A DNA stretch of 39,765 nucleotides from Guillardia theta CCMP2712 (GCF_000315625.1 NW_005434620.1:487349-527113), one strand, 5' to 3'; numbered from the stretch's first letter, positions 1-36,900 are shown. Made by a program: numbers and translations. Notes: generated by a model not told the origin, from the letters alone.

Positions 1-106
1 CTTTTGTCTTTCTTCCTTTCCTCCTTCCCCTTTCTCTCATCCCCTTCCATCTTCTCTTCTTTCCCTCCTCCTCCCTTCCCCCTCCCCTCCCGTCCTCGAG
101 CTCCTC

Positions 107-3100
107 ACCTCAGCTGCAGAACTCCAGCACTGATGCATGAGCTCGATTATCTCCGACGGAACTGACTCATCGATCTGTTTCTCCAGCATCAGCCTCTTCC
201 TCCACGTCTCTCCCGCAAGATCCAACTTGCGCTCCTTCCATACCAACACTGCCCCCTGAACCGCAACCATACTGAACCTTCGCATTCTCCTCTCTCATCC
301 CTTCACTATTTCTACCTCCCTGCCCGCCAGCCTCCCAGCCTTCCTCTCTTCTTGCCTCCCTCTCTCTTCTTGTCTCCCTCTCTCTGCCTGTCTCCCTCTC
401 TCTGCCTGTCTACCCCTCTCCCAGCCTTTCCCTGCTTCTCACCATCGGTCGGAGCTCGCCTCGTTTGATGAGTTCCAGCGTCTGCAGGAGCTCGGCGTTG
501 GGGTAGATGGAGGAGGTGCGAGGATGGAAAAGTTCCCACAAGGTGATGGCGTACGCGTATACGTCCGATGCTGTGCTCTCCATTCCTCCATCTAGCAGCT
601 CTGGAGCTGTCCACCAGAAAGGAAGAGCGCCTGCCGAGGGGGGGGAGGAGAATCAGGGAGTGAGAAGTAAGGAGAGGTGAGGTTGCAATCGTTGAGGGCA
701 AGGATGAGTGTAAAGGGAAGACGAAGACAAGGACGAGGACGAGGACGAGGACGAAAGTGGAGGAGGATTGGGACATCGAGGAGGATCGCGATGGAACCAG
801 AGCACGAAAGAAAGGGACGGGGGGACAGTGGACGACGTTCTCACCATCAGCAGAGTAGTCACGGGGAGCAAGAGCCTTCAGTCCAAAGTCAGAGACCTTG
901 GGCGTGAGCTTGAGGTCCAGAAGGACGTTGGCAGCCTTTAGATTCCTGTGAAGCACCGGGGGCTTTGCGAGGTGGACATACTGCATGCCGCACGCGATGC
1001 CGGTAGCGATCTCCATCCTCACATCGAAGGGAAAGTCGAACTGATTGTCCGCCATGTCCCTCACGGAGCCATACTCGAAGTACTGCATGATGATCAGCTC
1101 CCTGCCCCGGTCGAGGCAGGCTCCCATGATCGGGCAGAGGTTGGGGTGCCGCATGCTGATCATGACCCGAACCTCCGCCATGATCCTCGACCGCGCCGAC
1201 AGGCTGATCCCCTGCCCCCTTCCAATCAAGAGCTCGTACCTCCTCGATGCCTCTCCCTGGCTGCTCTTCGACCCACTAAAGTTCCCAGAGAAGAACGCCT
1301 CCTCCTTCGACCCAAGCCTCCTGAACACCTTCGGCTCCACGGTGCCATCCCCAGCGAGCTTGTTCAAGTCACAGTCTGTCACTCGATCGGACGGAGGACG
1401 GAAGGCCTCGCTCGAGCTCCTGCCGAAGGTATTCTGCAGCCAGGAGACCACGATGGACGTCTGATTTCCTCCTTGCCTCCCATGGTCTTCCCACGCCGAG
1501 TAGTCAGCCGAGATGCATCCTTGCGCCTTTAGCTTCATGATCCTCGAGGACGGCATGAGTCGCTTGCAGGCGACGATTCCTCCTCGAAAGATCACCTGAT
1601 GCCATCAATCAGAGCAAGGAGCAAACTGCGGAGAAAAAACGGGGAAAGCAAGCAACAACAACAGCGGAGGAGCTTTACCTTGCTCACAATGCCATGGCAA
1701 CCCATCCCGAGGATGCGAGGGTAGTCGTAAAACGAGATTTCTGCCCAGCTCACACTCCACAGTGATGCGTCCCTTTGCCTGATCCACCGGCGGATAATCC
1801 AGATGAGGAGGAACGTGACAAGTGCAGCAACGCCTCCCCCAATGAAGACGTTCTTCAACTCCCAATCTGGAGGGGGAGGAACGACGTCTTGGCAAGGGCA
1901 AGGCCCCTGTAAGTTGTTTGGGTCGATAGAGGAGGGGGGCCAATCAGGATTATCCAGACAGTGAAGCACATGCTCTGCGCACGTCTGCTTTGCAAAGATT
2001 GCCATGGCATTTGTCATGGTCTGTGTCGTCCCGCTCGTTCCATCCCTCACAACCCTCAGGATCGGCTTTGTGGGGAGGTTGAGAGAGGGATTTAGCTGCT
2101 GCACTCGGCTGTCATTCCAGCATGTTATCTTCCCCAGAAAGATGTCGTTGATGATCGGGCCATTGAGGCGGAGGAAGGCACCGGAACCCAGGCTCAGGTG
2201 CGCAAAGATAATCACTGCGCTCGCAAACATTGGGAGGATCTGAATGTTCTGCTGCCTAGCACACAAGGTGAGCTTGGAATAATCAATTAATGCATCTGTC
2301 CCAGCGAAGTCAATCTGACACTGCAGGATGTCTTGGATGCCAACCCCTGTGGTGCGAGAAGGTCAGGCATCACATCAGAGGACAAGATCCAACAACGATC
2401 ACATACCTGAGCCACCTCCATCATATTGGACGATGACCTCATTCTGATACATCGCATACTCTAAGTTGAGGACATCATACAAACCTTTTGCCAAGGAACT
2501 CCCCGTTCCATACAACAGGATCTTCTGGAGACCCGTTTGATACGTGATGTTTTGAACAGGGATGCCATTGCATTTCATGTATTCCAGCCTTTGTTTTGCC
2601 TGATCTCGCAACTTACTATCAACATCACATGGTCCAACCTTTGTCAAACCTTCTCCTTCAAATCAGTCGGAAGCATTCCAAAATGGTTTTCATGTGCAAC
2701 CTACACCGATCGTCATTGAGACAACGGAATTCGACTAGGGGATGGGATACCGCAGCAACGCGATCCGAGGTGAGTATCCAATGAATATAATCATGGAGAG
2801 CCTTGGCTTTCATGCAAACATCGTTCGATCCAGTCCAATTTGTTGGGACCATGATATACCTAACAGCCGATCACTTTACAAGACGACAACAATGCTTCTG
2901 CCACACGTCATGGTGGAGATTGGCCAGGCATCAGTGGCATCAGGACTGAGGATGTTGGCACAAAGTCCCATGGGGCTGCAGTTTCCTTCAGCATTGGGAT
3001 CGCTCAATGCAAATGCCTTCGCCCTGACAGCCGCCTCAACTGTATCAATGCTCACAGACACCTGTTGCATTCTTGTGAGTGGAGAGTAGGAGAGGAAGAG

Positions 3101-3456
3101 GCTAGAGAGAGTAACAAGAAGGCATGGAATGCAGAGCTCACAGGGTTTCCAGCAGATCCTATCAGCTGGGCGATGATAATGTCCCCGCTCTGCGCTTCTT
3201 GTACAATCCGATTGTCATAGGCTGTATATCCGACGGAATATGGGTCACTGCGGACCAGGTTGATCATATCAAGGCTTGTTTGCATGTAAGTGAGAGATTG
3301 GCAGGTCCCGTTCAAGTTCTGCGTCGCATTGGATGCTCCCACAACGTACATAGTGCCAATCACGAACAGGAAGTAGACGAAATTATGTCTCGTCTCTGTG
3401 AATTGCCGCCAGGGAAGCCCTGGAGGCTTATTCACAGACAATGGACAAGATGCCAT
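107..3456 (-). CDS. Receptor-like (pseudo)kinase: signal peptide, circularly permuted PstS-like phosphate-binding domain, TM helix, TKL kinase domain (multi-exon; 3' end beyond window edge)
   Basis: Spliced reading: MASC...NFVYFLFVIGTMYVVGA (hydrophobic leader). PstS C-half motifs DMINLVRSDPYSVGYTAY, LIGSAGNP, DAWPISTMT, LHDYIHWILT. PstS N-half motifs LYGTGSSLA, VQYDGGGSG|VGIQDILQCQIDFAGTD (60-nt GT-AG intron 2347-2406), LRLNGPIINDIFLGKITCWND, VVRDGTSGTT. TM VFIGGGVAALVTFLLIWII-RRW. Kinase motifs LGMGCHGIV, VACK, MRHPNL, HRNLKAANVLL, VSDFGL, WTAPE, SDVYAYAITLWEL, LMHQCW. Confidence 0.88.
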
Positions 3457-3759
3457 GAACGGGAACCCGCACTAGGGTGGGTGGACGAACATGAGGGAGG
3501 GTTTTTCACAGCACACAGGACAATCGTGAGGCCCAGGTCCTGACCCCATTCATCGTCTGGGATCAGAAGACGAGGGAGCAGAAGGAAGAAGAGGTGAGTA
3601 GAGGTAGGCAGGAAGACGAGGGATGACTGAGAGAACGGAAAGTATGGAGAGGTATGTGATGAGAGGGTAGGATGGCGAGGAAGAAGCGAGGAAGAAGCGA
3701 AGAAGAAGCGAGGAGGAGGCGAGGTCGGCTTTCAGTGAGGAACAAAATGGAGTGTAGGG

Positions 3760-12719: not shown

Positions 12720-13860
12720 GTTGGCACCGGGGAGTCCGAAAGCCTATGGGCCGTCGACCTTGACCCCCGGGCCCGGCGGCCGGCTAACTTGAAGGCTTAG
12801 TGACTTGTCAGACTACTAGGCTAGTGACGGACTCCGGGAGTAACACGTAATCGGCCATCGACCCGGATTATCGCTCGTCATGACGGTAGCTGCGATGCCA
12901 TGATCCGCCGGATAGCGGCCCGGCCCGGCCTACTAGGCTAGACTACCGGGCGCGCGTACTACGGTACCCGGTACATGGCCCACCGTCACTGTGACAGTGT
13001 CACAGTCTGGCTTCGTCCGGGCGGGGGGCCTCGCAGGCTCAGCCCGGGCCTGGCAACCGTCCGACCCGGTCAGCCCGGTGTGATCACTGTCATCATCAGC
13101 CCGGCCGGACTGACTCCCCGGTCAGACCCCTGGAAATCACTGACTCGGACCCCGCTCAGTCACTGTCGCACGCCGGGCCGCGCCCCCGGCCGGTGCCCGC
13201 CGCCGCCGCCCCGGCCGGCGAACTTCGAACTCGGAACTTTTAGAACTTTGGAACTTTGAGCTGTTTCCAAGTTTCGCTGCCTGAGCGATCCGAAGTTTCG
13301 CTGCATAGCAAATTTTCTGGAACTTTATGCCAGGGGGGTGGGTAGGCCTTGAACAAGTTGTAGGAACGAAGATTGTGGGGGTGGTCTGAAACCAAAGGGG
13401 GTGATGCTCCTTCGACATTTGGGGTAGTACCTGGGAAAATTGGGGGTAGGGTCCACTTCAGTCAGCACCACCTGATGACTGAAACTTGGGGGTGGGAGTG
13501 TTCAGAATTGTTTGCGAGACCCGGGGGTTGGCACTTCTCCATGGGTAGGGTGGTCTCATTTGTCAGAAATGGTGGGGTGGTGCACTGATAAGGCACTTGT
13601 ACAAGGGTCTATTGTTGCGGGGTAGGGATGCATGGGTAGGGTACTGAAAAAGGGGCCACTACAGGGTATTTCGAGTCGGAAGGAGGGGTGCATGAAATAG
13701 TTGGTTGGACAATGGCGAGAGCGGTGGTAGGGTGCTAGAAAAAGTCAGGAGTAGGGGTAGGAGTAGGGGTGGGTAGGGAGTACACTGGGGGTACATCACA
13801 GGGGAGGTGGGTTGGTGGGTCGCAGAGGCGGCATCGCAATGTTGCGCCGGGGCGTAGCGG
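12720..13860 (+). repeat. Intergenic spacer module 4 (GC-palindromic block, GAACTT cluster, GGGGTA block)
   Basis: 12720-13220 is rich in cccggg/ggcc/ccgg/gtcac/gactc; gaact(t) occurs five times at 13220-13256; aagtttcgctgc occurs twice (13269, 13293); ggggtaggg tract 13330-13800. Confidence 0.6.
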
Positions 13861-13899
13861 AGGTGAGATGATGGCGAATAAGAAGACGAAAACGAGGAT

Positions 13900-13912
13900 A
13901 AAGATGATGGTC

Positions 13913-13951
<39 letters not shown>

Positions 13952-14463
13952 GAGATTATGATGGAGATGGAGATGATGGAGATGGATATGATAGAGATGG
14001 AGATGGAGATGATGGTGATGGAGGAGATGATGGAGATGATGATCACGATGATGATGACGGAGATGATGGAGGTGGAGATGGAAATGGAAATGGCGATGAT
14101 GGTGGAGATGATGATGATGGTGGAGACGATGATGGTGGAGATGATGGAGAAGATGATGATGGAGACGATTATGGAGATGATGATGGAGATGGAGATGGAG
14201 ATGGAGATGGAGATGGAGATGGAGATGGAGATGGAGACGATGAAGATGGAGGAGATGATGGAGACGATGATGGTGGAGATGATGGAGATGATGATGGAGA
14301 TGGAGATGATGATGGAGATGATGATGACGATGGAGATGATGATGGAGATGGAGATGGAGATGAAGATGGAGATGATCACGATGAAGGTGGAGATGATCAC
14401 TATGGAGAAAAAAGAGAAGACGATGGAGATGGAGATGGAGATGGAGATGATGATATTATGATG
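13900..14463 (+). repeat. Compound microsatellite (ATG)n/(GAGATG)n
   Basis: About 560 bp of atg, gag atg and acg atg triplet units. Confidence 0.95.
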
Positions 14464-14659
14464 AGCAAACACTATGAGCAAGAGAAGGATTTTTTGGACT
14501 GCCACGGCCGAAACGCTGTGCGAGGGAATGGGGGAATGGGAATGCTGTCCAGAAAAGAGGTCGCAGGCTTGATAAAGATCTTGGTATGCAAGTCATTATC
14601 TCCATGTTCAATCAATCTAGTATTTCACATGCTCAACGTCTTGTCTTGCGTCTGAAGCC

Positions 14660-17600
14660 ATGTTAGTGAAGGGAGTGGGAATTCCATTTCCCCGACAGAT
14701 AACACTAACTCTGTTAAGATATCTGTGAACTTCCTTGACCAGTGCCCCACAGAAAACCGTCGCTCTCACCAGAGCCAGGGTCGCTAGCAGGAGCTTCCTA
14801 GCGACAGGTGTAGAGAAATGAATGAAGACCTTTTTCATTGTCGAATTTTCAGAACTGACTTGTAGTGTGCCAGCGTCCAAGATCAGACTTGAAAATGCTC
14901 GATCATACTCAAGGAAGACAACGATTCCGGATGTTGCTGGAGCCTCCTTCAACATTTGCTCCCAACAAAATCGCAGGCCTCGGATGGTCTTCTTCAGTCA
15001 GCAGAGACGTTTTGCTTCTACCTTCAAAGTAACACATTTGACATCTTGAACGCTGAAGTGATTGTTTTGGTTGAATTGCTTTGTGCAGGAGGAGTATGAG
15101 AAGCATGTTGCAGAACGTGCAGCACAAGGGATCGTTCCCAAGCCGCTTAGCCCCAAGCAATGCAGTGACCTTGTAAGCCATTAAGTTTTCGCTGCTATTG
15201 ATGATCGGCCTGCATGTGACCTGGATGCATCTTGCAGGTCGAACTTCTCAAGAATCCACCAAAGGGTGAGGAGGAGTATCTCCTGAATCTCCTCAAGACA
15301 CGGGTAATATTTCTGGCTTCAATTTTCATTCTTTTTTAATGCTGATCCAATCTCTCCATAGGTTCCTCCCGGTGTTGATGAAGCTGCTTATGTAAAGGCA
15401 AGCTTCCTTACCTCGATCGTGAAGGGTAACTTGTTACAGAGTATCAATTACTCTGTTTTGACGTGTCGATTCTTAGGATCTGTCTCCTCGCCTTTGATCA
15501 ACAAAGCACAGTAATTGGAACTATGTGCATTGATGCTTTCATCTGATATCATTCTCGTCCTTGTCGAACAGGGCTATCGAAATTCTTGGAACCATGCAGG
15601 GTGGATACAACGTCGAAACCCTGATTTCTGCACTTGATGATGCTCAACTCGCGCCTGTTGCATCGAAGGTTTGAATTTTCCGCTTTCCTCTGCTTGGTAA
15701 CTTTCGACTAGGCTCTCAAGAAAACATTACTCCTCTTTGATGCTTTCTATGACGTGGAAGCTAAGGCAAAGGCAGGCAACAGCTTTGCAAAGGAAATCAT
15801 ACAGTCATGGGCTGACGCCGAATGGTTTCTCTCAAAACCAGAGGTGCCAAAGAAGATCACAACTACCGTTTTCTTTGTCAAGGGAGAGACGAACACAGAC
15901 GATCTCTCGCCAGCTCCCGATGCTTGGTCAAGACCAGACATTCCACTCCATGGATTGGCCATGCTGAAGAATGCAAGGGAGGGAATCATCCCTGACAAGG
16001 ATGGCGAAATTGGTCCTATGAAGCAGATTGAGGAGTTGAAGAAGAAAGGACACCCTCTGGCTTACGTAGGAGATGTTGTTGGTACTGGTTCTTCCAGGAA
16101 GTCTGCTACCAATTCAGTGTTGTGGTTCATGGGGGAGGAAATTCCTTTTGTGCCAAACAAGAAGTCTGGTGGTGTTTGCATCGGAGGAAAGATTGCTCCC
16201 ATTTTCTTTAACACCATGGAGGATGCAGGTGCCTTGCCAATCGAGATGGATGTCACAAAGATGAACATGGGCGATGTGATTGACATTTATCCATACGAGG
16301 GAGTTGTGAAGAACAATGCAACTGGAGAAGTCTTGTCTGAATTCAAGCTCAAGACTGAAGTACTGTTGGATGAGGTTAGAGCAGGCGGAAGAATTCCTCT
16401 CATCATCGGCCGTGGATTGACATCAAAGGCCCGAAAGTCTCTCAACTTGGAGCCATCCAAAGTTTTTCGACTTCCAACTGGTGCCTCAGAGAAGAAGCCG
16501 GCAGGCTATACACTTGCTCAGAAGATCGTTGGCAAAGCTTGTGGCGTCGAGGGTGTTTCGCCAGGCACTTATTGTGAACCCGCGATGACTACTGTTGGCT
16601 CGCAGGATACTACAGGCCCGATGACTCGTGATGAATTGAAGGATTTAGCTTGCCTTGGCTTCAGTGCTGACTTGGTTATGCAATCTTTCTGCCATACTGC
16701 AGCATACCCCAAGCCCGTTGATGTTGTCACACATCACACTTTGCCAGATTTCATCCGTACTCGTGGAGGTGTCTCCCTTCGACCTGGAGATGGAATCATC
16801 CATTCATGGCTCAACAGGATGCTTCTTCCTGATACGGTCGGGACTGGAGGCGATTCTCATACTCGATTCCCAATTGGTATCTCCTTCCCAGCTGGCTCTG
16901 GCCTGGTAGCTTTTGCTGCCGCAACCGGCGTGATGCCCCTTGATATGCCAGAGTCGGTGTTGGTCCGATTCAAGGGCAAGAAGCAGCCAGGAGTTACGAT
17001 CCGTGATCTTGTACATGCCATTCCGTACCAGGCGATCCAGGATGGACTTCTCACAGTCGAGAAGAAAGGAAAGAAGAACATCTTTTCCGGACGCATTCTC
17101 GAGATCGAGGGTTTGCACAACATGACAGTTGAGGAAGCATTCGAAATTTCGGATGCCTCTGCCGAGAGGAGTGCAGCCGGGTGCACAATCCAGGTTGACA
17201 AGGACAAGATCATTGAGTACCTGAACTCGAACATCACGATGCTCAAGTGGATGATTAGCGAGGGATATGGCGATGCCCGTGCGATGGAGCGAAGGATTGC
17301 GTCCATGGAAGAATGGCTCAAGAATCCAGTCTTGCTCAAAGCCGATCCTAAGGCGGAGTATGCTGCCACCATCGAGATCGACCTTGATAAGATTAAGGAG
17401 CCTATTCTCTGCGCTCCTAATGACCCCGACGATGCCAGGCTGTTGTCTCAAGTTCAAGGAGACAAGATCGACGAAGTGTTCATTGGATCATGCATGACCA
17501 ATGTCGGACATTTCCGAGCGGCTGGCAAGCTGCTTCGCGAGTTTACCGGCCAGATCCCAACCAGGCTGTGGATTGCGCCCCCAACAAAGATGGATGCGGG

Positions 17601-17991
17601 TGTGCTGACTGAGGAAGGTTACTACTCCATCTTTGGACGTGTGGGCGCTCGTATCGAGATGCCAGGGTGCTCTCTCTGCATGGGTAACCAAGCTCGAGTC
17701 GGCGACAGCACCACCGTCGTCTCCACCTCAACCAGGAACTTCCCCAACCGTCTTGGCAAGGGAGCGAATGTCTACCTTGCCTCCGCAGAGCTTGCAGCTG
17801 TCGCTTCCATCCTTGGGCGTCTGCCAACTCCAGCTGAGTACTTGGAGTATGCGGCGAAGATCAACTCGACTGCCGCTGACACCTACCGCTACATGAACTT
17901 TGACAAGATGGAGAGCTACGTGAAGAGTGCGGCGAAGGTTGAAATCTCAGCGGAAGCTCGAGAGGCGGCAAAGAAGCATTTCTCGAAGTAG
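14660..17991 (+). CDS. acnB: Aconitate hydratase B (bacterial AcnB type) with probable mitochondrial presequence
   Basis: Exons spell [55 protein letters not shown], then one long exon 15712-17991 with [45 protein letters not shown], Fe-S cysteines FIGSCMTN and [10 protein letters not shown], and [10 protein letters not shown]. Six GT-AG introns between 15029 and 15711. The leader ends [10 protein letters not shown]. The exact start codon (14660-14984) is uncertain. Confidence 0.96.
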
Positions 17992-20349: not shown

Positions 20350-22768
20350 CGATACCACGAGACGATCCCACGTTCACAAGCTTTCCTGCTTGCTGGACAA
20401 AGGAGCATCGAAAATACATCAAAGAGGTCTTCCAGTTCAGTTTCAACTTTGTTTCCGCGCACTCAGCTCCATGTGTTAACCATTTACAAGCAGCCATATC
20501 AACATCACCACATATAACATCACAGGCGGCACAGAGAGGCTGGGTCAAGACACCATGCTGTCCTGCAACAAGCCCTCCAACAGCGTGTCTGTGCCGCGTC
20601 TCGGAATCGACTTCTTGCTCTCGAACGTGTGCATTCGAACCCATCGGTGCGAGATCAATCTCCTTGCCTGCCATGGACAAGTCAGCTCCAGCAAACGCCT
20701 TCGTCCCCTTCTCCTTCTCACCTTGGGCCGTCGCGAGGCCTCTCGTTGCAGGCAGGATAAGATGAAGCTCCTCCCTGCGCATGGGACGTCAGCGATCGGG
20801 CAAGATCCTTGCAAGAGATCACAACCTGTCTCTGAGAGCCCTGGGGGCAGCTCTGGCAGATCCTCCGACTTGGCTATCTTCATCAGCACCGCCATCGTGT
20901 TCAACCCTTCCCATGGCATCTTCCCAGTCATCAGCTCCACCACCGTCATCCCCAACGACCAGATGTCCGCCGACCTTCCCGCATGCTGCGAGAGGAGCAG
21001 TCAGCGAGGGTGAGGAGCCTCCTCACCGGCATGAGAGCCCTCGGGAATGAAGCACTCACCTTGTCCAGAACGATCTCCGGCGCCATCCAGTTAATCGTCC
21101 CAGCTGGGTCCCTGCCCGAGCTCGGCTCCTTGTACCATCCTGTGCTGTCTGTGTGCAGGTCATGGCCGAAGTGAACGTCGAACATCCTGCTGGCTCCGAA
21201 GTCCGCGAGTTTCGCGATCATCTTCAAGGACTCGACTCCCTTCGCCGATGTGATCTCGTTGTCCATTGCAGGGAAGAGCAGGCAGTTCGCACCCTTGATG
21301 TCTCGGTGCAGGATGCCGTTGTTGTGGAGGTACTCCAGCCCCAGCAGGAGCTGGGCTGTGTACTCCCGTGCAACGGTCTCCTCGAGGCCCTTGCTTGCTT
21401 TCGCGAGGTCTGCCAGCGATCCGCCATGTGCATACTCCATGAGGATGAAGAGTGTTGTGTCCGTCCGCTCTGAGCCGAGGAGGGTAACGATGGAAGGATG
21501 CGACAATGCAGACATGATGCTGATCTCCCTCTCCACCTTCCCAGCTCTCGATCCCATCAGCTCCACCTCCTTCACCGCGACGACTTGCCCTTTCCCATCG
21601 TTTCCGTCGACGTCCCAAGCAGAAAACACTGTCCCGAAAGCTCCTTGCCCCAGCAACTTCCCTCGAAACCACCTGAAACGAGTCCCGCAGAACATGTCAT
21701 TGCCGAAACCATGAGGAATCATTGAGGGAAGATTATCATGACATTTCCTGCAATCGCTTGTCTTCCTTTCATACATCGGCTGCTTCATGTCAGGCGCTTT
21801 CCTCGCTTCATCCACTCGGATTAAAACCTTGGCGACCTCGTTGCGAAACCGCACCGACTCGAGCTTCTGCACGATGTCTTGGCATTGAGAAGCAATTTGC
21901 AGGAGGAGCTGTCGACGGCCTTCTTGTCCAGTGCTCGTTGACGAGTAAGAGAGGTCCTCGTCGTCGGAGGATTGTGAGCAGACTGAGGTTGTCCGGTAAA
22001 TGACATCGTCCAGCGCTTGCATCCATAGATCAAGATCATCTGCCCTCTTGCTCGCATCTGATATGACGATTCTTCTCAGAGTTGCAGTCTCCATGTGTGA
22101 GAAGTAAGACGAGGAGACCTTGTTCTTCAACGCTATCAACTCCATGTAGACCATCAACGAGGCCGGGTCAACATCGAGCTGCGTGATGATCTTGGAGTTG
22201 ATGTTCAATCCATCGTCTTGCAGAGACAGCAGGATCATGTCCATAACACACAGGCATGGGATGCCCTGCCAGATGAAGGCCTTCCTGTTCACGAGGTCCG
22301 TGCTGGCGATGATGGCTCCGCTGAGAGCGTACATGCATGTCTCAAAGCAGTCGTCAAAGAACGAAGGCCAGATGCTGTTGAAGCGATCGGCAAAATCAGT
22401 TGAGTTCGAGACCTGCAAGGAGCTTCACCTCAGAAGAGCATCATCCCATCACAAATGTTACCGTGAAGAAGCTGCGAGCAGACGAAGGGAGTTTGTTCTC
22501 CACCACCATATTCTCCCATTTTTTCCTCTGGTTCTCTTCAAAGGATTCCAGCTCTATGATCGAACCCGCTGATATCACGGAACTCGATCTTCGGTAGTCC
22601 TGCCACGAGCATCAAACTTGTGAGCAACTTGTGCAAAAGGCGAAGCACCGGAACCGTTGGCAAGGATTCGCTGTCGTCGTATCGCTTCGGAGAGGAACAT
22701 CCCGTGTTCACTGAAGCACCACAGCCCATCTTGTATCTATCGCGCACTTCGGGACCATCTTGAAGCAC
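20350..22768 (-). CDS. STE11/MAP3K-like Ser/Thr protein kinase with N-terminal extension
   Basis: RWFRGKLLGQGAFGTVF, VAVKEV, REISIMSALSHPSIV, FILMEYAHGGSL, LEYLHNNGILHRDIKGANCL, KLADFGAS, GTINWMAPE, ADIWSLGMTVVELMTGKMPW, FILSCLQREASRRP. Both ends approximate; no clear terminal exon before spacer module 5. Confidence 0.9.
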
Positions 22769-23233: not shown

Positions 23234-24970
23234 GTATATATATATATTAACTTCGTGATTATAACATACTCTTACACTTTTTCTTCGTGATTATACCACA
23301 AAGAATACTACTATTATACTTAGTACCCTTTGCGTATGATAATATTCTCATATCATTACTCTAACAATTTCCTTATAACCTAGTAAAAGTTTAATATTCG
23401 CTATCAAACCCTTACACACTATAAATAGCCCGTTTATGGACTGTAAGTAATACCTATGTTATTTAATAATAAACTATATATAGAATATACACCATACTAA
23501 CAAGTCTTAGTAGTTATTCGTGTGTAGTCTTATAAAATTTCTTCGTGACTCAATTAGACTTATCCCCACACACTAAAACTAACCTCATTACACCTTTTAA
23601 CATCTTCAATTAATATACTTTCATTTCACATTACACCCTTATAATACTATAAAATCCCTTTCAAATCTAAATCTTACCATATTTCCATTATTGTGTTTAA
23701 AAATGATTTAATCTAATAAATAATTACTTATACCTTACTTAATTATGACCGATTCTATGGCACTCTTCTATAGATACCCCCATAATTATAAAAATATTTC
23801 TATCATTGACGATGATATCTCCAAAAATCTTAAACTTCTCTATCAACAAAACTATCAATCTAAATTTGAACACTCTAAAGAACATTCCATCGGTCAATAT
23901 TCCGGACCTAGTTCTTGGACAGAACAACTACAATATTATGATATTAACTCATATGATGATATCAAATCTATTCAATTTGATTCAATACCCTCTAAACCCC
24001 TTCATCCTGAATTAGGCAAAATCAGATTCATTAATAAATACACCTTCGGTATTGATACTGACGAAATTCAACATATACTTCTTAATAATCGTCTCACATT
24101 CCTTAAAATATTTCAATTCCGTATTGAAAATAATAAAGCAGTTGCTACCATTCTTAATGACCTTAAAGTCTTTCTCAAAATTATTAAAACAGTTCTCGGT
24201 GATGAACATGAACTCTCTCGTAAATATCAAAGACTTACCTATGACTTTGATTATATCATCGTCCGTCAAATTGAAGGAGATAACACCCTTAATCAAAAAG
24301 AAAAAGCCAATTGGATCTCTTTCCCTACTATCCTTCAACTTAGAGACTCCCTTGAACATGAATGGCGCACTCTACTACAAAATAAACCTATGCTTAAAGA
24401 TACTAAAGCTGCAGATAAACTCATTTGGACAAAACATTATGCTATGCTCTTACTCAGCTGTTATACTCTAACTCCCCCTGTACGCCGTGAGCTATTCGGA
24501 ATCAGATTTCAACAATTTGAAAATAATGACTTTGTCTATATTCCTCAAGATATTAACAAACCTGTTGAATATGTCCTTTATACTATCAAAAAACTTCATG
24601 AACCTATTCAATATCCTGTAGGGTATGACGAACAATCCAGTTATAAACTATCACAACTTATCCGAGAATCTTATCAACTCTATCCCAGAACATTCCTTTT
24701 CCCTACTGTCACTGATATCAATAAACAAGCACAACCTAATACTATAGCTCTGTACTTTCAAAAACATGTTTGTGATAAAGTATACCTCTCTATTAATATA
24801 ATTCGTTCCAGCTTCATCACCTGGAGAAATCAAAATCCTTATTATACATATAATCAACGTAAAGTTGATGCTAATAAAATGAGAGATGATATTCTTGTCC
24901 ATCTTCAATACTATAACAAAGTACTTGACCCTGAACTAACCAAACTCAAAGAACAACAAGAAACACGTGC
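23234..24970 (+). mobile_element. AT-rich foreign island (probable fragment of an endogenous virophage/Polinton-like virus or other tyrosine-recombinase element)
   Basis: Abrupt switch to AT-rich, G-poor sequence at a (TA)n run (23235-23247); intronless 1.2-kb reading frame; abrupt return to host spacer sequence near 24970. Confidence 0.7.
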
Positions 24971-25127
24971 CGGAGCAACCCCCCTATTGAGTTTTTCCAC
25001 CCCACCCCCTAGCCATCCCACACACCTACCCTATTGTACCCCCACCTACATCATTTTATCTGGCTACCTTGTATCCAGTGGCAGTACCCCTATATTGACC
25101 TTTCAAAGTACCCCTATGTTTGACTGA
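23745..25127 (+). CDS. Tyrosine recombinase/integrase-like protein (last about 50 aa are read-through into spacer DNA)
   Basis: Motifs in YR order and spacing: LLLSCYTLTPPVR (Arg I), YTIKK (Lys), LSQLIRESY...FLFP, SINIIRSSFIT (HxxR-like), ANKMRDD, LQYYNK (nucleophile Tyr). Confidence 0.75.
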   Translation: MTDSMALFYRYPHNYKNISIIDDDISKNLKLLYQQNYQSKFEHSKEHSIGQYSGPSSWTEQLQYYDINSYDDIKSIQFDSIPSKPLHPELGKIRFINKYTFGIDTDEIQHILLNNRLTFLKIFQFRIENNKAVATILNDLKVFLKIIKTVLGDEHELSRKYQRLTYDFDYIIVRQIEGDNTLNQKEKANWISFPTILQLRDSLEHEWRTLLQNKPMLKDTKAADKLIWTKHYAMLLLSCYTLTPPVRRELFGIRFQQFENNDFVYIPQDINKPVEYVLYTIKKLHEPIQYPVGYDEQSSYKLSQLIRESYQLYPRTFLFPTVTDINKQAQPNTIALYFQKHVCDKVYLSINIIRSSFITWRNQNPYYTYNQRKVDANKMRDDILVHLQYYNKVLDPELTKLKEQQETRAGATPLLSFSTPPPSHPTHLPYCTPTYIILSGYLVSSGSTPILTFQSTPMFD

Positions 25128-26120: not shown

Positions 26121-27319
26121 TTAGAATTGCGCCTGTCTGAACTTGACCAACTTGGCAATGCTGCAACAGAAGACGAGAGGGGAGGAGAAGCGAGAGAGAG
26201 GGGGCGGGCGGGCGGGGGGGGGGGAGTGAGTAGAGACAGAGAGAGAGGATGAGGNNNNNNNNNNNNNNNNNNNNNNNNNNNNNNNNNNNNNNNNNNNNNN
26301 NNNNNNNNNNNNNNNNNNNNNNNNNNNNNNNNNNNNNNNNNNNNNNNNNNNNNNGCGGATCAGCAATGGTCTTCACTTTCTAGGGAGTCCAGATCCACCC
26401 ACCTCACCGAATGATCTTTGCTGTCGGCGACCAGCAGAAACTTCCCATCCAGGCTTATGGCAACGCCAGTGGGTTCGTAGAACTGTGCATTGGTACCAAT
26501 ACCATCATTCAAACCCGAGACCCCATTCCCAACAAGATCATGACACGTATCTGGAATCTGCCAGTCCACATGCTTGATCGAGTGGTGGGACTTACCGCCA
26601 ATATAGGCATGGCTCCCAACTAGGTCCAACCCAGCGGGAATCATCGTTGGAGACCCCGCCGGGACAGCCACGATGGAACTCACAGCTCCCGTCTGGAGGT
26701 TGATCTTTCGCATGTGATCCGTGTCGACAACAACAAGAGCGAGGGAGGGAGGGAGAGAGAGAGAGGAAAGGAGAAAAAGAGAAAGGAGATGAGGAGAGAT
26801 AGAGGGGAGGGGATGAGGAAAGGAGTAGAGAGAGGTGGGAGGGGAGAGGAGGGGATGAGGAGGGGAGGGGTCCACGGGAAAGACAGGCAAGCTCAGCATC
26901 AGATGGGACAGGAGACGGAAGAAGGAAGTAGCAGAGGAGGGGTCCACGGGAAAGACAGGCAAGCTCAGCATCAGATGGGACAGGAGACGGAAGAAGGAAG
27001 TAGCAGAGGAGAGAGGGGCAGGCAGGAAGAAAAATGGATAGACTGCGTACAATTTGTTTCGAAGTTGTGTTGAGCAGATGTTTTAAATCATTGTCTGTGT
27101 ATTGATAGTTGCTCACGCTTTACTTCTCTGCGCAGAACAGCAGATATCATGTCGATTCTTCAATTTCTTTGCTTCTTCCTTTTCGTTTTCTCCCTTCCCA
27201 CACTTGCATTGCGGCCCTCCAGGCTTCCTGCTCCGAAAGGCTCTGCGGCACCCAAGCACTACGAGGACATCCATCCTCTGAGGTTTGTTCATATCTTCGG
27301 CAAACATACGCACTGGCAC
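26121..27319 (-). CDS. NHL-repeat (beta-propeller) protein, partial, interrupted by an N gap
   Basis: LVGNGVSGLNDGIGTNAQFYEPTGVAISLDGKFLLVADSKDHSVRWVDL is a typical NHL repeat; also DTDHMRKINLQTGAVSSI. Exon structure incomplete. Confidence 0.75.
26865..27011. repeat. Exact 72-bp tandem duplication
   Basis: ggggtccacgggaaagacaggcaagctcagcatcagatgggacaggagacggaagaaggaagtagcagagga occurs twice (tccacggg at 26871 and 26943). Confidence 0.95.
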
Positions 27320-27456: not shown

Positions 27457-30400
27457 TTATGCAATCGGGCTGTTTTGACTCTCCGTCACTTGCACGTCTT
27501 GCTCTAATTTGAGTTCTCCGATCTTCAAGCTCAGCTCCGTCTCGATCAAGTCAATCAACGGCGCTTCTCTGTTGCTCCTCCTCTTCCTCCTGTTGCTCTC
27601 CATCGCAACCTGCCGCAGTTCTGTCCTCATTTCGGCCATGCTCTCCTTGATCATGCCCCTGATCCCGCTCATCTCCTCATGAATCTTCTCCTCTACGCGC
27701 TTCATCAACTGAGCCTGCTGCTTGCAAGCCTTGGCAGCGACCTCGTGAGGCTCCATCCAGTATGCCTCGAACACGCCGCTGCCTCTCCGGTCTGAGCTGT
27801 GTGTCGTCGCTCCTAAGCTCTGATCGATCCGCTCCATATTGATCATCATTTCCTTTATCGCCGCGAGGAGGACCTCGATCTCCACCGACGACTCAAGGTG
27901 CATGATGGCGTCTGTCACCTTCCTCATGGTGAAGGTGCGCAGCTGCCCGACGATGATGGAGTGGAACTGCGGGAACCCGAGCTCCCAGTCGTCGTTGCAG
28001 AGCTTCCTCCCCTTGGTCAGCCTGTCAAAGTCGTCCTCTGTGAACTTGAGGTGGCTCGAGGGGTCGATCTTGTGCAGCCCGTCCGCCAGCTCCGAGTAGG
28101 AGATCGAGCCCGTCCTATCCACGTCAAGTAGGTCGAAGAGCTTCGCGATCTGATATTGCAAGTCGTCCGTGCTGTCGTACTGCAGGCGCTCAAGGAGAAT
28201 GTCGAGCGGGAAGGCGTCGTCCGCTCGCATCTGCATCGCTGCGGCCTTTGCACACTCCTCCCGATCCTGACGCGTCGCCCCGAAGAAGTTCTCGAGGAGG
28301 ACAGCGACCATGACCTGTGGGTTCGAGTGAGCCTGGCGAGGAAGGCGAGAGGAGGAGGGAGGAGGACGAGGATGGAGGACGAGGGAGGAGGGGGAGGGGG
28401 AAGGAGAAACCTGCAAAGAAGCAGAGGCAGCACAGGAAGGGAGAGGGCATGAGGTGACAAGAGGAAATGATAACGAGGGCGAGAGAGCGAGCAGGTAGCA
28501 GGAGATAGGTAGATCAAGGAAGGCAGGAGGGAGGAAAAGGCAGGAGGGAGGAAAACCTGGAGTAGGACGAGGACAACGATGCAAACGTAGCTGCACACGT
28601 AGGTGACGACGATAGGGTCCACTTGATCAGTCACTGGATCGAAGGGAGGCAATTTGTCGTCGGGCCAGCTGGAAGAAGAGGTCAGATTCTGAAGAGGAGG
28701 AGGACGAGGAGGGGGAATCGAGGCAAAGGGGGCAGGGATCGGCATAAGGAGCTTCACTCACTATCCATATGCGATGACGGCAAACATGGTGTAGTAGGCC
28801 TGAAAGAAAGTCCCTGTTGGCAGGGTGAGGAGTCGCCGTTTGCACTAACAACGGAGGGAGAGGAGGAGGAGGAGGAGGAGGAGGAGGAGGAGGAGGAGGC
28901 GGGAGGGGAGGAGAGGCAGAGGGGTTGGAGGTGGAGGACACGGCGGTGGAAGGTGGTGGAAGGCGCCGTCTCGTCTAGCGCTCACCAAACTCCTTCGGCG
29001 CCTTCTCCCCGAAGACCTCGACGCCGAGGGTGCAGTAGATGGCGATGACGATGATGCCGATGATGAAGGCCTGGGTGACGGGGATGATGCTGCTGACGAT
29101 GGCATGGATGATGCTCCTTAGCTGCCGCAGCCTCCCGAAGATGCGGATCACGCGGAAAGTTCGCAGGATCCTCAGGTGCTTCACCCCCGGAAGTTCCGAC
29201 AGGCCGAGCTGGATCAGTGAGACGGTTATGATGGTGAGGTCGAACCAGCACCTGTAACGAGAACATCTCAGTGAGGCGTTGGGGAGGGCGAGGGAAGGGA
29301 GAGAGCGGGGAGACAAATTTATGGAGGAGGGCAGGAGAGGGAGGAGGAGGCAGAGAGCGAGAAGGGAGAAGCGAAGAACGGGATCGAGGCTATATGGGAA
29401 GGGATTAAACCAAGCATCATGCACGAAGCGCCAGAAGAACCTTCCGAATATGTTGATTGCAAGCTCTGATGCAATTTGTCAGCACTTGAAGTTGCGACGA
29501 GGCGCAGCAGCGGGAGGGGATCCGGCCTCACCTATTGTGAAGATGATGGTGAACGCCAAGTCTACGAGCTGGAACTGGTTGTCAAGGTCAGACCCAGCCT
29601 GTGGTCTGATCTGCGTCTGTGCGATGATCAAGAAGAAGTTGGCAATGATGAGTGCCGCCATCACGCCCTGAAAGTAGATCGAATCCAACATGAGGCATGC
29701 CCTGTGCTGCCAGATGTCGATCCAATGTTTCTTGCTGTACTCCGACCTCTTTTCCTTAGCCGTGGATGCAATGATGTCCACCCAGTCGTGGACGGAGGCA
29801 TTGTTGGGTAGGAAGAAGAAGAAAGCTCTCCCCGAGTTGTATCCATCCGGTATCGTCTCGATCTCCATGACCTCTCCATTGTCGCGCTGCAAGTAGCGGG
29901 TCGCAGCGACTCTGGAGTATCCAGGGAGAATGACCTCCTCTACCTCTTCTGCCTCCTTGAGACACTCGAGCCCTTCGTGATTTGAGTTATGACGCGAGGA
30001 ACTCACACCCGCGTTCACTGACTTGATCTTCAAGCCGGTTGCGAAGGGGCTCCATCGCCTGTCCTGATTCTTGTGCTTCAGGAAAGGGTTCTGAAGAACG
30101 CGGTTGACTGTGACGATCTCTTCCGTCGGGATGCTATCCACGATCTCGACCTGTTCGTTTGCTAAAAGATAGTTGCCGTGCTCCTTCAAGACCTTTGTCC
30201 ATCGCTTCATGTCTTGATGGCTCTCGCAATTGAAGTAAACGATCGGTCGATTGTACGCATCGTTGATCTTGATCGCAAATGGAAACCCTTCCACCGCATC
30301 GTCTTCATCAGAGAGCCGACAGCCCAGCACGTTGAGCCTGAAGAAAGGCTTTTTTAGTCGTCGAAAGTCATCCTCAGTCTCATAGCACTCAAAATTCCCT

Positions 30401-30774
30401 GAACGCAGCACAGAGTAGCAGTTCTGCCACTTGTCTGCGCTCGGCTGGACATTTACAGCCATGTTTCCGTATGCATGGGGGAACCAAGATTTCGAGAGGG
30501 CGATGTAGAGCCTGTCTTGCGTCAAGATCAACCTTCTCCGCACCCAGTCTCCATGACAGTCGAGTTTGTCGGCGGTGTCGTCACGAATTCGCGACTCCTG
30601 GGGCACTGCGCTGGCCATCATTTCATCTTCACAGAAGAACTTGAAGCTCGAGAACGATCCTGATTTCATCAAGTTCCTTGCCCTTCTGATCCCATCCTTG
30701 TTGCCGTTTGCAGCTGCTGGCTTTGATCCAGAGCCTGTCCTGTTCAAGTGAACTGCTGCACCTGCAGCAAACAT
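27457..30774 (-). CDS. Single-domain (6TM) voltage-gated cation channel with N-terminal PH domains and C-terminal EF-hand/coiled coil
   Basis: S1 YFQGVMAALIIANFFLIIAQT; S2 VDLAFTIIFTI|ELAINIF; S3 WFDLTIITVSLI; S4 KHLRILRTFRVIRIFGRLRQLR; S5 AFIIGIIVIAIYCTLGVEVF; P-loop FGTFFQAYYTMFAVIAYGYWPD; S6 SYVCIVVLVLLQ|VMVAVLLENF; EF-hand DVDRTGSISYSEL; PH motifs KWQNCYSVLR...DMKRWTKVL. First in-frame ATG at 30774. Confidence 0.9.
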
Positions 30775-30776
30775 CG

Positions 30777-30826
30777 TTGCAATCTCTGTTTGCAATCTCT
30801 GTTTGCAATCTCTGTTTGCAATCTCT
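30777..30826. repeat. 13-bp tandem repeat (ttgcaatctctgt), about 3.8 copies, just 5' of the channel ATG
   Basis: ttgcaatctctgt ttgcaatctctgt ttgcaatctctgt ttgcaatctct. Confidence 0.9.
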
Positions 30827-31089
30827 CGCTCAAGCGAGGAGCTCCAGTCAATCACGAGTGAGACCTCTCTTCATGTCAGCAAAGCTGTGAATGTCGGCGA
30901 TCTACGAGCTGATTGCACCCGCAACACCTCAAATGTTACGAGAAGTTCAAGGTAGAATCAAGTCCAGCCATAGAGTTTGGTAATCACTGCCATGAACAGA
31001 ACGAAGTGGACTGGAGTGAGTGATGGCCAATGGCAGCGTGAGGGAGGAGGAGGAGGAGGAGGAGGAGGAGCAGTTGGGGAGGGGGAGTG

Positions 31090-33720: not shown

Positions 33721-33975
33721 GGATCGAGCGGAGGGCGAATAGATGGGAGAGAGAAGGAAAGATTCATTGAAGACGAAACATACAAGCTGAAGAAGAGAAG
33801 AAAACAGGAAGGCCAGTTATGAGAGATACAACAATGATTGGAGGTTTAATGATGCTGAAGAATCAAAACGAATTTCAGAAAGAAAATGTCCAACAACCAT
33901 AGCGCTCAGCCATTCCGTCACAATTGATCAACCAGAAGATAACTTGAATTTGACTCTGATTCTCAACACCCACGC

Positions 33976-36900
33976 ATGCCCTCCCGGCTCCTCCTCCCCC
34001 TCCTCCTCCATCTCCTCCTGCTGTCTCGCAACCCCCTCCATGCTGTGGTCTCCCCACCTCCTGCCGTGGTGTGTCCTTCCCCGCTGGTGCAGGTGAACGG
34101 GACCTGCTTCTGCAAGGACGACTCCAAGAGGGGAGAGATCTTCCAGTCCGGACGGCTGCTGGCGAGCCCCAGGAGCAGCTCCACCTGCATCATCAGCAGC
34201 GGCGCTGTCAAGTGCTGGGGAGACAACAGCTACTATCAGTTCGGGTACCAGGGGAAGCGAGCGGTGGGGACGGGGGCAGGAGACATGAGCTCGCTCCCGG
34301 CGCTCAACGTGCCAGGCAGCGCGGTGAAGGCGGTAGCAGGGGAGGGCTTCTTGTGTGTCCTCAACGACGCTGGGGAGATGTACTGCTCGGGCTCGAACGC
34401 GCTGGGGCAGGCGGGAGCAGGCAACGTCAACTGGACGGCGAGCATGACGAGGGTGAGCCTGGGGAGCGGGAGGAAGGCGACGGATGTGACAGCAGGGGCA
34501 TGGCATGCATGCGCGGTGCTGGACAACGGGCAGGTGAAGTGCTGGGGCTTACACACGCAGGAGTATCCCTGCTGCGGGGTAGGATCGTATCCCCCGAGCA
34601 ACTGGACGGAGGCGATGAGGAGGATGGGAGACAGCCTTCCGTACGTGCCCCTGCAAGAGCAGGTGCAGTCGATAGCAGCTGGAGACCTGCACACGTGCGC
34701 GCTGCTGGTAGGAGGAGACGTGCAGTGCTGGGGCGACAACTCGGTAGGACAGCTGGGAAGCAACGTGGCATCGCCGATGGGGTACGACGTGGAGGCCTCG
34801 TACGTGGGGATGCCGGGGGTGCGGTACGGAGTGAGGTAGAGGAGGAGAGGGAGGAGGGAGGAGGAGGTGACGCGAGCTTGGGAGCAGGATCTGGGCAGGA
34901 GGCTTCTCGACGTGCGTGGAGCTGGACACGTCGGAGGTGTTTTGCTTCGGGCTGAACAGGGACGGGCTGCTGGGGTATCAAGACACGACGAACCGGTGGC
35001 TGGCAGCGACGCCGGCGCCAGAGTACATGGAAGGGATCCAAGACATAGCGATCGGAGGACGGTACTTCGCGTGCTTCCAGCTGGTGGACATGACGGTGAA
35101 GTGCATAGGAAACAACGGGAAGGGTGAGGGAGGGGAGGAGGCGGAGGGAGGAGGTGACGGGGGTGTTGGTGAGCAGGTCAGCTGGGGACGGGGAAGGCAG
35201 GGAGCTCGGGGACGAGCTTCCTGAGCAACCAGACGGCCGTGCTGGGAGGGATGAGAGTGATGAAGGTCGTAGCCGGGTACGAGCATGCGTGCGCTCTGCT
35301 GATGAACGAGAGCGTCGTGTGCTGGGGGAGCAACACGTACGGGGAGCTGGGGATAGAGCAGGCAGTGGCTAGCCATGCTCCGAGCATGGCGCTTGTAGGG
35401 GACAAGCCGGACCTGTACCAGTACGTGACGTGCACGACGAGCGAGTACTGCCTTCTTCCGAAGTGAGCGGGAGGAGGGGGAGGGAGGGAGGGGGAGCTGG
35501 GGGAGAAGAGGAGGAGGGGGAAGGAGGGTCTGATGTGCGGGTGTGTCAGGCTTGGGAACGGCACGTACTCGGTGAGCGGAGACTCGGTACTGGCGGGAAC
35601 GACCGTGATGGCAAGGGAGGAGGGGGAGGCGAGGAGACGGAGAGGCTGGACGGGGGGAGAGCAGGCGAGCTGTCTGTGGAACTTNNNNNNNNNNNNNNNN
35701 NNNNNNNNNNNNNNNNNNNNNNNNNNNNNNNNNNNNNNNNNNNNNNNNNNNNNNNNNNNNNNNNNNNNNNNNNNNNNNNNNNNNNNNNNNNNNNNNNNNN
35801 NNNNNNNNNNNNNNNNNNNNNNNNNNNNNNNNNNNNNNNNNNNNNNNNNNNNNNNNNNNNNNNNNNNNNNNNNNNNNNNNNNNNNNNNNNNNNNNNNNNN
35901 NNNNNNNNNNNNNNNNNNNNNNNNNNNNNNNNNNNNNNNNNNNNNNNNNNNNNNNNNNNNNNNNNNNNNNNNNNNNNNNNNNNNNNNNNNNNNNNNNNNN
36001 NNNNNNNNNNNNNNNNNNNNNNNNNNNNNNNNNNNNNNNNNNNNNNNNNNNNNNNNNNNNNNNNNNNNNNNNNNNNNNNNNNNNNNNNNNNNNNNNNNNN
36101 NNNNNNNNNNNNNNNNNNNNNNNNNNNNNNNNNNNNNNNNNNNNNNNNNNNNNNNNNNNNNNNNNNNNNNNNNNNNNNNNNNNNNNNNNNNNNNNNNNNN
36201 NNNNNNNNNNNNNNNNNNNNNNNNNNNNNNNNNNNNNNNNNNNNNNNNNNNNNNNNNNNNNNNNNNNNNNNNNNNNNNNNNNNNNNNNNNNNNNNNNNNN
36301 NNNNNNNNNNNNNNNNNNNNNNNNNNNNNNNNNNNNNNNNNNNNNNNNNNNNNNNNNNNNNNNNNNNNNNNNNNNNNNNNNNNNNNNNNNNNNNNNNNNN
36401 NNNNNNNNNNNNNNNNTGCAGACTCGATCTTCTGCAAGGACGCGGGGCCGTCGTGGGCCATGACGCCGCTGGTAAGAGGGGAAAGGAGGAACGAGGAGGG
36501 AGGAGCAGGAGCAGGGAGGAGGATGACGAGGGGGAGCGGATAGCAGGAGCAGGAGCAGGAGGAGGGCTGGGACGGGAAGGACAAGGAGGAGCAGGAAGGG
36601 AGGAGTTGCCGAGCTGAAGGTCGGAGCAGGGGAACGCCACACATCAACCGACGAGCTGGTACCCGAAGTATGACGTGGCGTACAAGGGGAGAACGACGTT
36701 GTACTCATGCGCGGTAGGAAGGAAGAGAAGGGAGAGGGGAGGCGAGGGGGAGGAGCAAAATGACCAGGAGGAAGAGAGATGGGGGAGGAGCAGGTGTTCG
36801 AGATTGTGGGAAGGGACGAGCAGGGTCACGAGAAGGAAGGAGAAGGTCAAGGAGAGGAGGCGGAAGTAGGGCTGAAGTAAGTGCGAGCAGTGTATGCAGA

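Follow-up and report, generated by a model that had tools for sequence, protein, structure and literature searches.

Evidence for a circularly permuted PstS ectodomain on a probable single-pass receptor of the cryptophyte Guillardia theta

The phosphate-binding protein PstS of Escherichia coli (TIGR00975 type; PDB 1IXH and 9K3S) is a soluble subunit of an ABC transporter, and PstS2 of Streptococcus pneumoniae (SP_2084; PDB 4H1X), another bacterial transporter subunit, is naturally permuted, with the canonical N-terminal part at the end of its chain. Eukaryote databases hold many PstS receptors without permutation, in which the domain is joined to several outputs: two PstS units, a transmembrane (TM) helix, a kinase and a cyclase in Fabomonas (P0018); PstS, TM helix, pseudokinase and cyclase in Tubulanus (P0092) and Haliotis (P0113); PstS-cyclases in Andalucia and Ostreococcus; PstS-7TM GPCRs; and Pandoravirus kinases. 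The two animal proteins (P0092, XP_074655677.1; P0113, XP_067652446.1) are receptor guanylyl cyclase-like, have an unpermuted PstS ectodomain in which the phosphate motif is complete (S, S, D, R, D, S, G, T) and are annotated only as 'retinal GC-like' or 'ANP receptor-like'; in eukaryotic class C GPCR-type (7tm_3) proteins, P0010, P0016, P0023, P0028 and P0041 among others, the ectodomain consists of one intact and one degenerate PstS unit. The ectodomain of receptor guanylyl cyclases themselves is of the ANF-receptor type, not PstS.

We analysed a 39,765-nucleotide stretch of the G. theta genome (hereafter the window), at the start of which lies a minus-strand gene that a sequence-only reading had taken to encode a circularly permuted PstS domain used as a receptor ectodomain. 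Seven exons, separated by GT..AG introns of 47-83 nt, join into 747 uninterrupted codons; with two further exons added, the frame extends to 832 codons and the gene then exits the window at its start. The features of the gene and its product are:

3457..3580, minus strand: 5' untranslated region, from transcript contigs, with an in-frame TAG at 3474-3472 and upstream ATGs at 3553, 3549 and 3492
3456-3142, 3061-2907, 2859-2751, 2700-2650, 2599-2407, 2346-1679 and 1595-845, minus strand: exons 1-7
3334..3456, minus strand: predicted signal peptide, residues 1-41, with a long n-region, a hydrophobic stretch at 26-41 and likely cleavage after V-G-A, by eye and hydropathy
2576..3297, minus strand: PstS C-terminal half, placed first; residues ~54-218, equivalent to E. 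coli mature ~171-315; exons 1-5
2531..2575, minus strand: linker bridging the former C- and N-termini, residues 219-233, carrying a C-x-G motif as in eukaryotic tandem-PstS junctions
1934..2530, minus strand: PstS N-terminal half, placed second; residues 234-412, equivalent to E. coli mature ~2-170; exons 5-6; S245, S274, D292, R375 and S379-G380-T381
1850..1933, minus strand: Cys/Pro stalk, residues 413-440, with C-P-C; kept in the Hanusia protein
1781..1849, minus strand: single TM helix, residues 441-459, hydropathy 2.55, followed by basic residues
845..1738, minus strand: first part of a TKL-type kinase domain, with Gly loop, VACK (K508), a long Ser-rich insert, HRN at 713-715 and DFG at 733; intron 1678-1596
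109..630, minus strand: kinase C-lobe exons 630-443 and 174-109, with APE756 and DVYAY, modelled from sequence only

Splicing of this gene is directly visible in assembled reads. The contig of run X1 (4276 nt, depth 112.7) has all six introns within 880-3580 removed as GT..AG joints and differs from the genome in no letter over that interval, and four of the six joints are seen in contigs of run X2; because these contigs are spliced, X1 and X2 represent transcripts. Over the same interval the DNA-like run X10 gave no spliced joints, and the raw-read run X15 gave just 5 matching reads among the 19.8 million read. Past the exons that can be modelled, 1476 nt of the X1 contig are left over. At the other end, both X1 and X2 contigs run unspliced from exon 1 to 3580, through the in-frame TAG, and carry only 180 and 203 nt more beyond that point. 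This unspliced leader with its in-frame stop means that no upstream N-half is missing and that ATG 3456, the proposed start, is the first usable one in frame. A normal PstS N-half in upstream exons, which would have made the protein a 1.5-domain tandem, is thus absent; a six-frame half-profile scan of the whole window likewise returned, above 9 bits, only parts of the receptor gene. The leader contains two upstream reading frames, one of 15 codons from ATG 3553 in a different frame and one of 25 codons from ATG 3549 (with ATG 3492 as its second ATG) that is in frame and ends five codons before ATG 3456; translational control by the three upstream ATGs is possible.

The remainder of the window is varied in content. 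At 15712-17991 (+) a single 759-codon frame encodes a bacterial-type aconitase B with the AcnB domains PF11791, PF06434 and PF00330, and an RCC1-repeat protein with a leader lies at 33943-34839 (+). The minus strand carries a protein kinase (20946-22424), an NHL-repeat protein (26360-27082) and gene pieces with a PH domain, EF-hands and ion-channel-like membrane segments (27457-30870). A long low-complexity, trinucleotide-like repeat at 13735-14655 has open frames on both strands. An intron-free frame of 467 codons at 23724-25127 (+) lies in a 33% GC island and gave no Pfam or PHROG match; by eye, motifs near its end resemble those of a tyrosine recombinase, which suggests an inserted mobile or viral element.

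The motifs quoted in the sequence-only reading are all present in the receptor, and in the order given there. Against a 347-position profile built from 35 ordinary PstS proteins, residues 62-218 fall on positions 208-343, and residues 234-412 fall on positions 25-199, which bears out the claim of two complementary, swapped and non-overlapping halves. Half-profiles from other PstS proteins recover residues 59-215 as C-half with 66.5 bits, where the best of 300 shuffles reached 3.9, and residues 238-397 as N-half with 144.3 bits, and a profile in the permuted register conversely finds two swapped stretches in E. coli PstS, at precursor residues 198-333 and 22-194. Exon 6 alone matches PF12849 (PBP_like_2) with 35.3 bits against a cut-off of 27, and the Hanusia relative described below scores 30.2. 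The cut corresponds to W169/P170 of mature E. coli PstS, and residues near 169-175 belong to the C-lobe (PMC12976172). Residues 54-61 correspond to the GLGGKGN strand just past the cut and close the short gap between the halves, so the domain is complete. Two complementary segments that do not overlap therefore cover the whole domain in swapped order, which supports, at the level of sequence, an ectodomain that is one intact circularly permuted PstS.

The closest relative found, a Hanusia phi protein from EukProt (P0001) retrieved by the kinase exon, provides the same order in another cryptophyte, in keeping with the cryptophyte affinity assumed in the sequence-only reading. It is collinear with the window protein over 652 columns (31% identity, E 2e-95) and has the same breakpoints, matching profile positions 207-343 and then 22-182; the swapped order is therefore no accident of assembly. 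Seven cysteines of the window protein (172, 220, 350, 397, 404, 424 and 426) align exactly with it and one loop holds two further cysteines in both proteins, whereas Cys52, Cys284 and Cys303 have no counterpart. Metagenome and viral scans and a protein search from P0001, all of limited reach, yielded no third permuted member.

To see what such a chain might fold into, we used P0001 as a stand-in, its ectodomain being ~27-29% identical to that of the window protein. AlphaFold2 was given residues 23-389 and an alignment, cut in the permuted register, that combined 14 tandem-junction stretches with 5 window exons and 4 N-half fragments. The resulting model (mean pLDDT 86.8, pTM 0.88; 83-87 across five models) predicts one two-lobed domain with the N-terminal strand where expected. 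Its best Foldseek match in the PDB, and the sole one below E 0.001, is the permuted 4H1X (293 columns, E 1.5e-10, TM 0.60 by target, rmsd 6.2 Å); matches to ordinary PstS chains span only 171-201 columns (rmsd 5.4-7.8 Å), as expected from the swapped connectivity. The rmsd values are high for 4H1X and ordinary PstS alike, and since the alignment was itself cut in the permuted register, the model speaks for the feasibility of the fold and not for the monomer being what forms. Of the proposal of one bilobed permuted domain, the intact and swapped halves thus stand on profile evidence, and the two-lobed fold stands as a prediction on the Hanusia relative.

The phosphate positions of E. coli PstS are T10, S38, D56, R135, S139, G140 and T141. 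In the window protein S245, S274, D292, R375, G377, S379, G380 and T381 occupy the equivalent places, as previously read, with G377 at the D137 position; all seven positions checked, side-chain or loop, are kept or conservatively changed. The E. coli D137G variant reportedly keeps phosphate binding. Gly at this position matches the engineered variant in PDB 1QUI/1QUJ, and equivalents of the E. coli binding positions are described in PMC5381212. Elsewhere in the site, the A9 position is S and the N177 position T. The P0001 site is more degenerate (S38 lost, T141 to S, D137 to H), so it is not uniformly kept in the family. All ligand positions lie in the N-half, although each lobe is built from both halves, and the site therefore needs the halves assembled. 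Judging from these residues, the permuted ectodomain likely binds phosphate.

The N-half, stalk, TM helix and start of the kinase are continuous within one exon. The kinase domain matches PF07714 and keeps the Gly loop, K508, N720, DFG and APE. The catalytic Asp of HRD is absent, HRN standing at 713-715 with the same letters in the X1 transcript contig, and the domain is likely inactive. Loss of this Asp defines one pseudokinase class, and in receptor guanylyl cyclases an ATP-binding pseudokinase precedes the cyclase (PMC4718504). The nearest kinase outside the window protein and P0001 is that of P0018 (E 5e-24), which has two PstS units; P0092 and P0113, with one each, are arranged as PstS-TM-kinase-cyclase, and the P0092 catalytic loop reads HGN. 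As deposited, P0001 ends shortly after the kinase, lacks a cyclase and cannot be aligned over the catalytic loop, and for these reasons it neither shows a cyclase nor confirms HRN. The window protein has the layout of a receptor cyclase (ectodomain, single TM helix, kinase-homology domain), and by analogy we lean slightly towards a class III nucleotide cyclase (PF00211) being encoded past the window, after the kinase.

How might the halves have become swapped? A search with the N-half over 1.84 billion representatives gave 2815 matches with E up to 0.001, from which 150 proteins were taken and 154 sequences examined in all; with this query the set is biased towards N-bearing proteins. Half orders among the 154 were N-C in 75, N only (fragments) in 36, N-C-N-C in 18, N-C-N in 10 and fourfold arrays in 4. 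The C-N order occurred only in the window protein and P0001 (2/154), and regular tandems of N-C-N or longer numbered 33/154. Many of the tandems belong to receptors of eukaryotes (Chromosphaera, Entosiphon, Fabomonas, Rhabdomonas, Plasmodiophora, Thecamonas), whose outputs are of the 7TM, cyclase or kinase-cyclase kind. The internal linker of the permuted proteins resembles eukaryotic inter-unit linkers, at 16-17 residues compared with 4-13 in eukaryote-type tandems, and a pair of cysteines around the final helices occurs in both permuted proteins and 26 of 33 eukaryote-type units but in none of 40 prokaryote-type units. A eukaryote-type profile fits the C-half better (67 bits against 46) and makes no difference for the N-half (139 against 139). 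In a tree the window protein and P0001 group together (0.99), and the sister group is not resolved. The linker and Cys pair shared with eukaryotic tandem-PstS receptors point to permutation by duplication (PMC3320104) with loss of the outer halves. We infer that, in a two-unit tandem receptor, unit 1 was stripped of its first half and unit 2 of its second, and that the old inter-unit linker now closes the circle.

Our working model is a single-pass receptor whose swapped-half PstS ectodomain likely binds phosphate and which would signal through a likely inactive kinase; taken whole, with its origin, we consider it evenly balanced between right and wrong. Phosphate would close the two lobes of the ectodomain. 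The TM helix follows the C-half in all six unpermuted receptors checked and the N-half in the window protein; the chain would emerge at the C-lobe, past the helix that grips phosphate with its S-G-T start, rather than at the N-lobe as in unpermuted relatives, and because of this exit closure would move the Cys-braced stalk and the TM helix. The shift of stalk and helix in what is probably a receptor dimer would re-set the ATP-binding pseudokinase, which would likely control a nucleotide cyclase beyond the window, marginally the favoured outcome, or a partner protein. Some details of the sequence-only reading need revision here. The count of N-glycosylation sequons is six, where it gave two. 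The domain had been thought to end just after the SGT loop, yet its end at W410-P411 lies ~30 residues past SGT and the TM helix begins 60 past; with ~30 residues to the domain end and 28 more to the membrane, a helix, Cys loop and 28-residue stalk intervene, and a direct lever from SGT loop to TM helix is too strong a picture. Nor is a stapling of the new termini through the N-terminal Cys52 supported, that residue having no partner in the Hanusia protein. We advance more tentatively, as a doubtful proposal, that a cryptophyte lineage rewired a eukaryotic phosphate receptor by permutation, moving its anchor from N-lobe to C-lobe beside the helix that grips phosphate, and that this receptor senses external phosphate directly and signals through a pseudokinase-cyclase.

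Several other explanations bear on parts of this model. The ligand may be a phosphorylated molecule or another oxyanion instead of free orthophosphate, or the site may have drifted to a new ligand: the D137, A9 and N177 positions have become G, S and T, the Hanusia relative lacks S38, many second units in eukaryotic tandems are degenerate, and similar A-to-S changes shift selectivity in C. perfringens PBP-1 (PMC5381212). That S, S, D, R and S-G-T nevertheless occur at all seven checked positions, in a protein ~35% identical to its best PstS halves, and that G at 137 and T or S at 177 are found in otherwise intact eukaryotic units (P0016, P0028, P0040), makes a different ligand somewhat unlikely. 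The assembly itself could also differ, as a domain-swapped dimer in which halves complete each other between two chains, each cleft comes from both subunits and the linker keeps the extended geometry of its tandem ancestor. Single-pass kinase and cyclase receptors are commonly dimeric. The linker is likely taken over from tandem junctions; there the corresponding C-half/N-half stretch is divided between two different domains, the match to Pandoravirus kinase models spanning 337-371 columns at an rmsd of 20-24 Å. Dimers of cyclases are described (PMC4718504). We nonetheless think a swapped dimer improbable, given that both permuted proteins have a longer linker than the eukaryote-type tandems, which it would need in order to span to the other half of its own chain, and that AlphaFold2 closes P0001 as a monomer.

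A bleaker reading makes the protein a truncated, decaying tandem-PstS remnant whose halves are complementary by chance and which has no sensing role. A likely tandem origin, a kinase without its catalytic Asp, three upstream ATGs that could damp translation and low expression in several runs would all suit it; 832 open codons, correct splicing, breakpoints shared, along with seven aligned cysteines, by a relative of just 31% identity, the two ends of the cut lying within a few residues and a full binding motif make it very improbable. Finally, a phosphate receptor could signal through its kinase domain alone, by weak activity or as a scaffold, with no cyclase. P0001 as deposited has none, K508, N720, DFG and APE are intact, and the 1476 nt past the modelled exons may be largely 3' UTR. 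Of the 40 proteins scanned, however, the three that are complete PstS-TM-kinase receptors (P0018, P0092 and P0113) all end in a cyclase, and loss of the HRD Asp, seen as HGN in P0092, is typical of cyclase-linked pseudokinases (PMC4718504); signalling by the kinase alone thus appears unlikely.

The ectodomain is purifiable and has a full phosphate motif and clear point-mutant controls, and it offers a clean natural case of probable permutation by duplication whose tandem intermediates are still present in relatives. Because the permutation changes the lobe tied to the membrane, it tests how Venus-flytrap closure passes to a TM helix. If the more tentative proposal of a rewired receptor is true, ordinary and permuted ectodomains would form a natural pair on the same chassis, and algae would have a concrete candidate for a cell-surface phosphate sensor.

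Titles and abstract openings in the open-access literature yielded no paper describing either a permuted PstS ectodomain or receptors of the PstS-kinase-cyclase type. The sequence-only reading had singled out the permutation as the notable part; the swapped order is real, but a natural PstS permutation was already solved in 4H1X. The cut in 4H1X differs, its chain ending near profile position 276 of 333, ~55 residues earlier, and at 17% identity an independent origin is likely. A receptor ectodomain with the present cut, and with the anchor on the other lobe, appears not to have been described before; the case is built on two genes. E. coli PstS shares the fold family and phosphate positions and aligns with both halves, but it is soluble, whereas the window protein is membrane-anchored, carries sequons and cysteines and has its halves swapped at W169/P170; with 79.4-80.1 bits against an NCBIfam cut-off of 205, its swapped order and its fused TM helix and kinase, it falls outside the bacterial PstS equivalog TIGR00975. 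Receptor guanylyl cyclases of the NPR1/GC-A type are alike in their Venus-flytrap ectodomain, single TM helix and kinase lacking the catalytic Asp (PMC4718504); they carry a cyclase domain, whereas the window gene is read only up to the kinase. The eukaryotic PstS receptors share with the window protein a PstS-type ectodomain, its Cys pair and linker motif, a single TM helix and a TKL-type kinase, but all keep the two halves in the ordinary N-C order.
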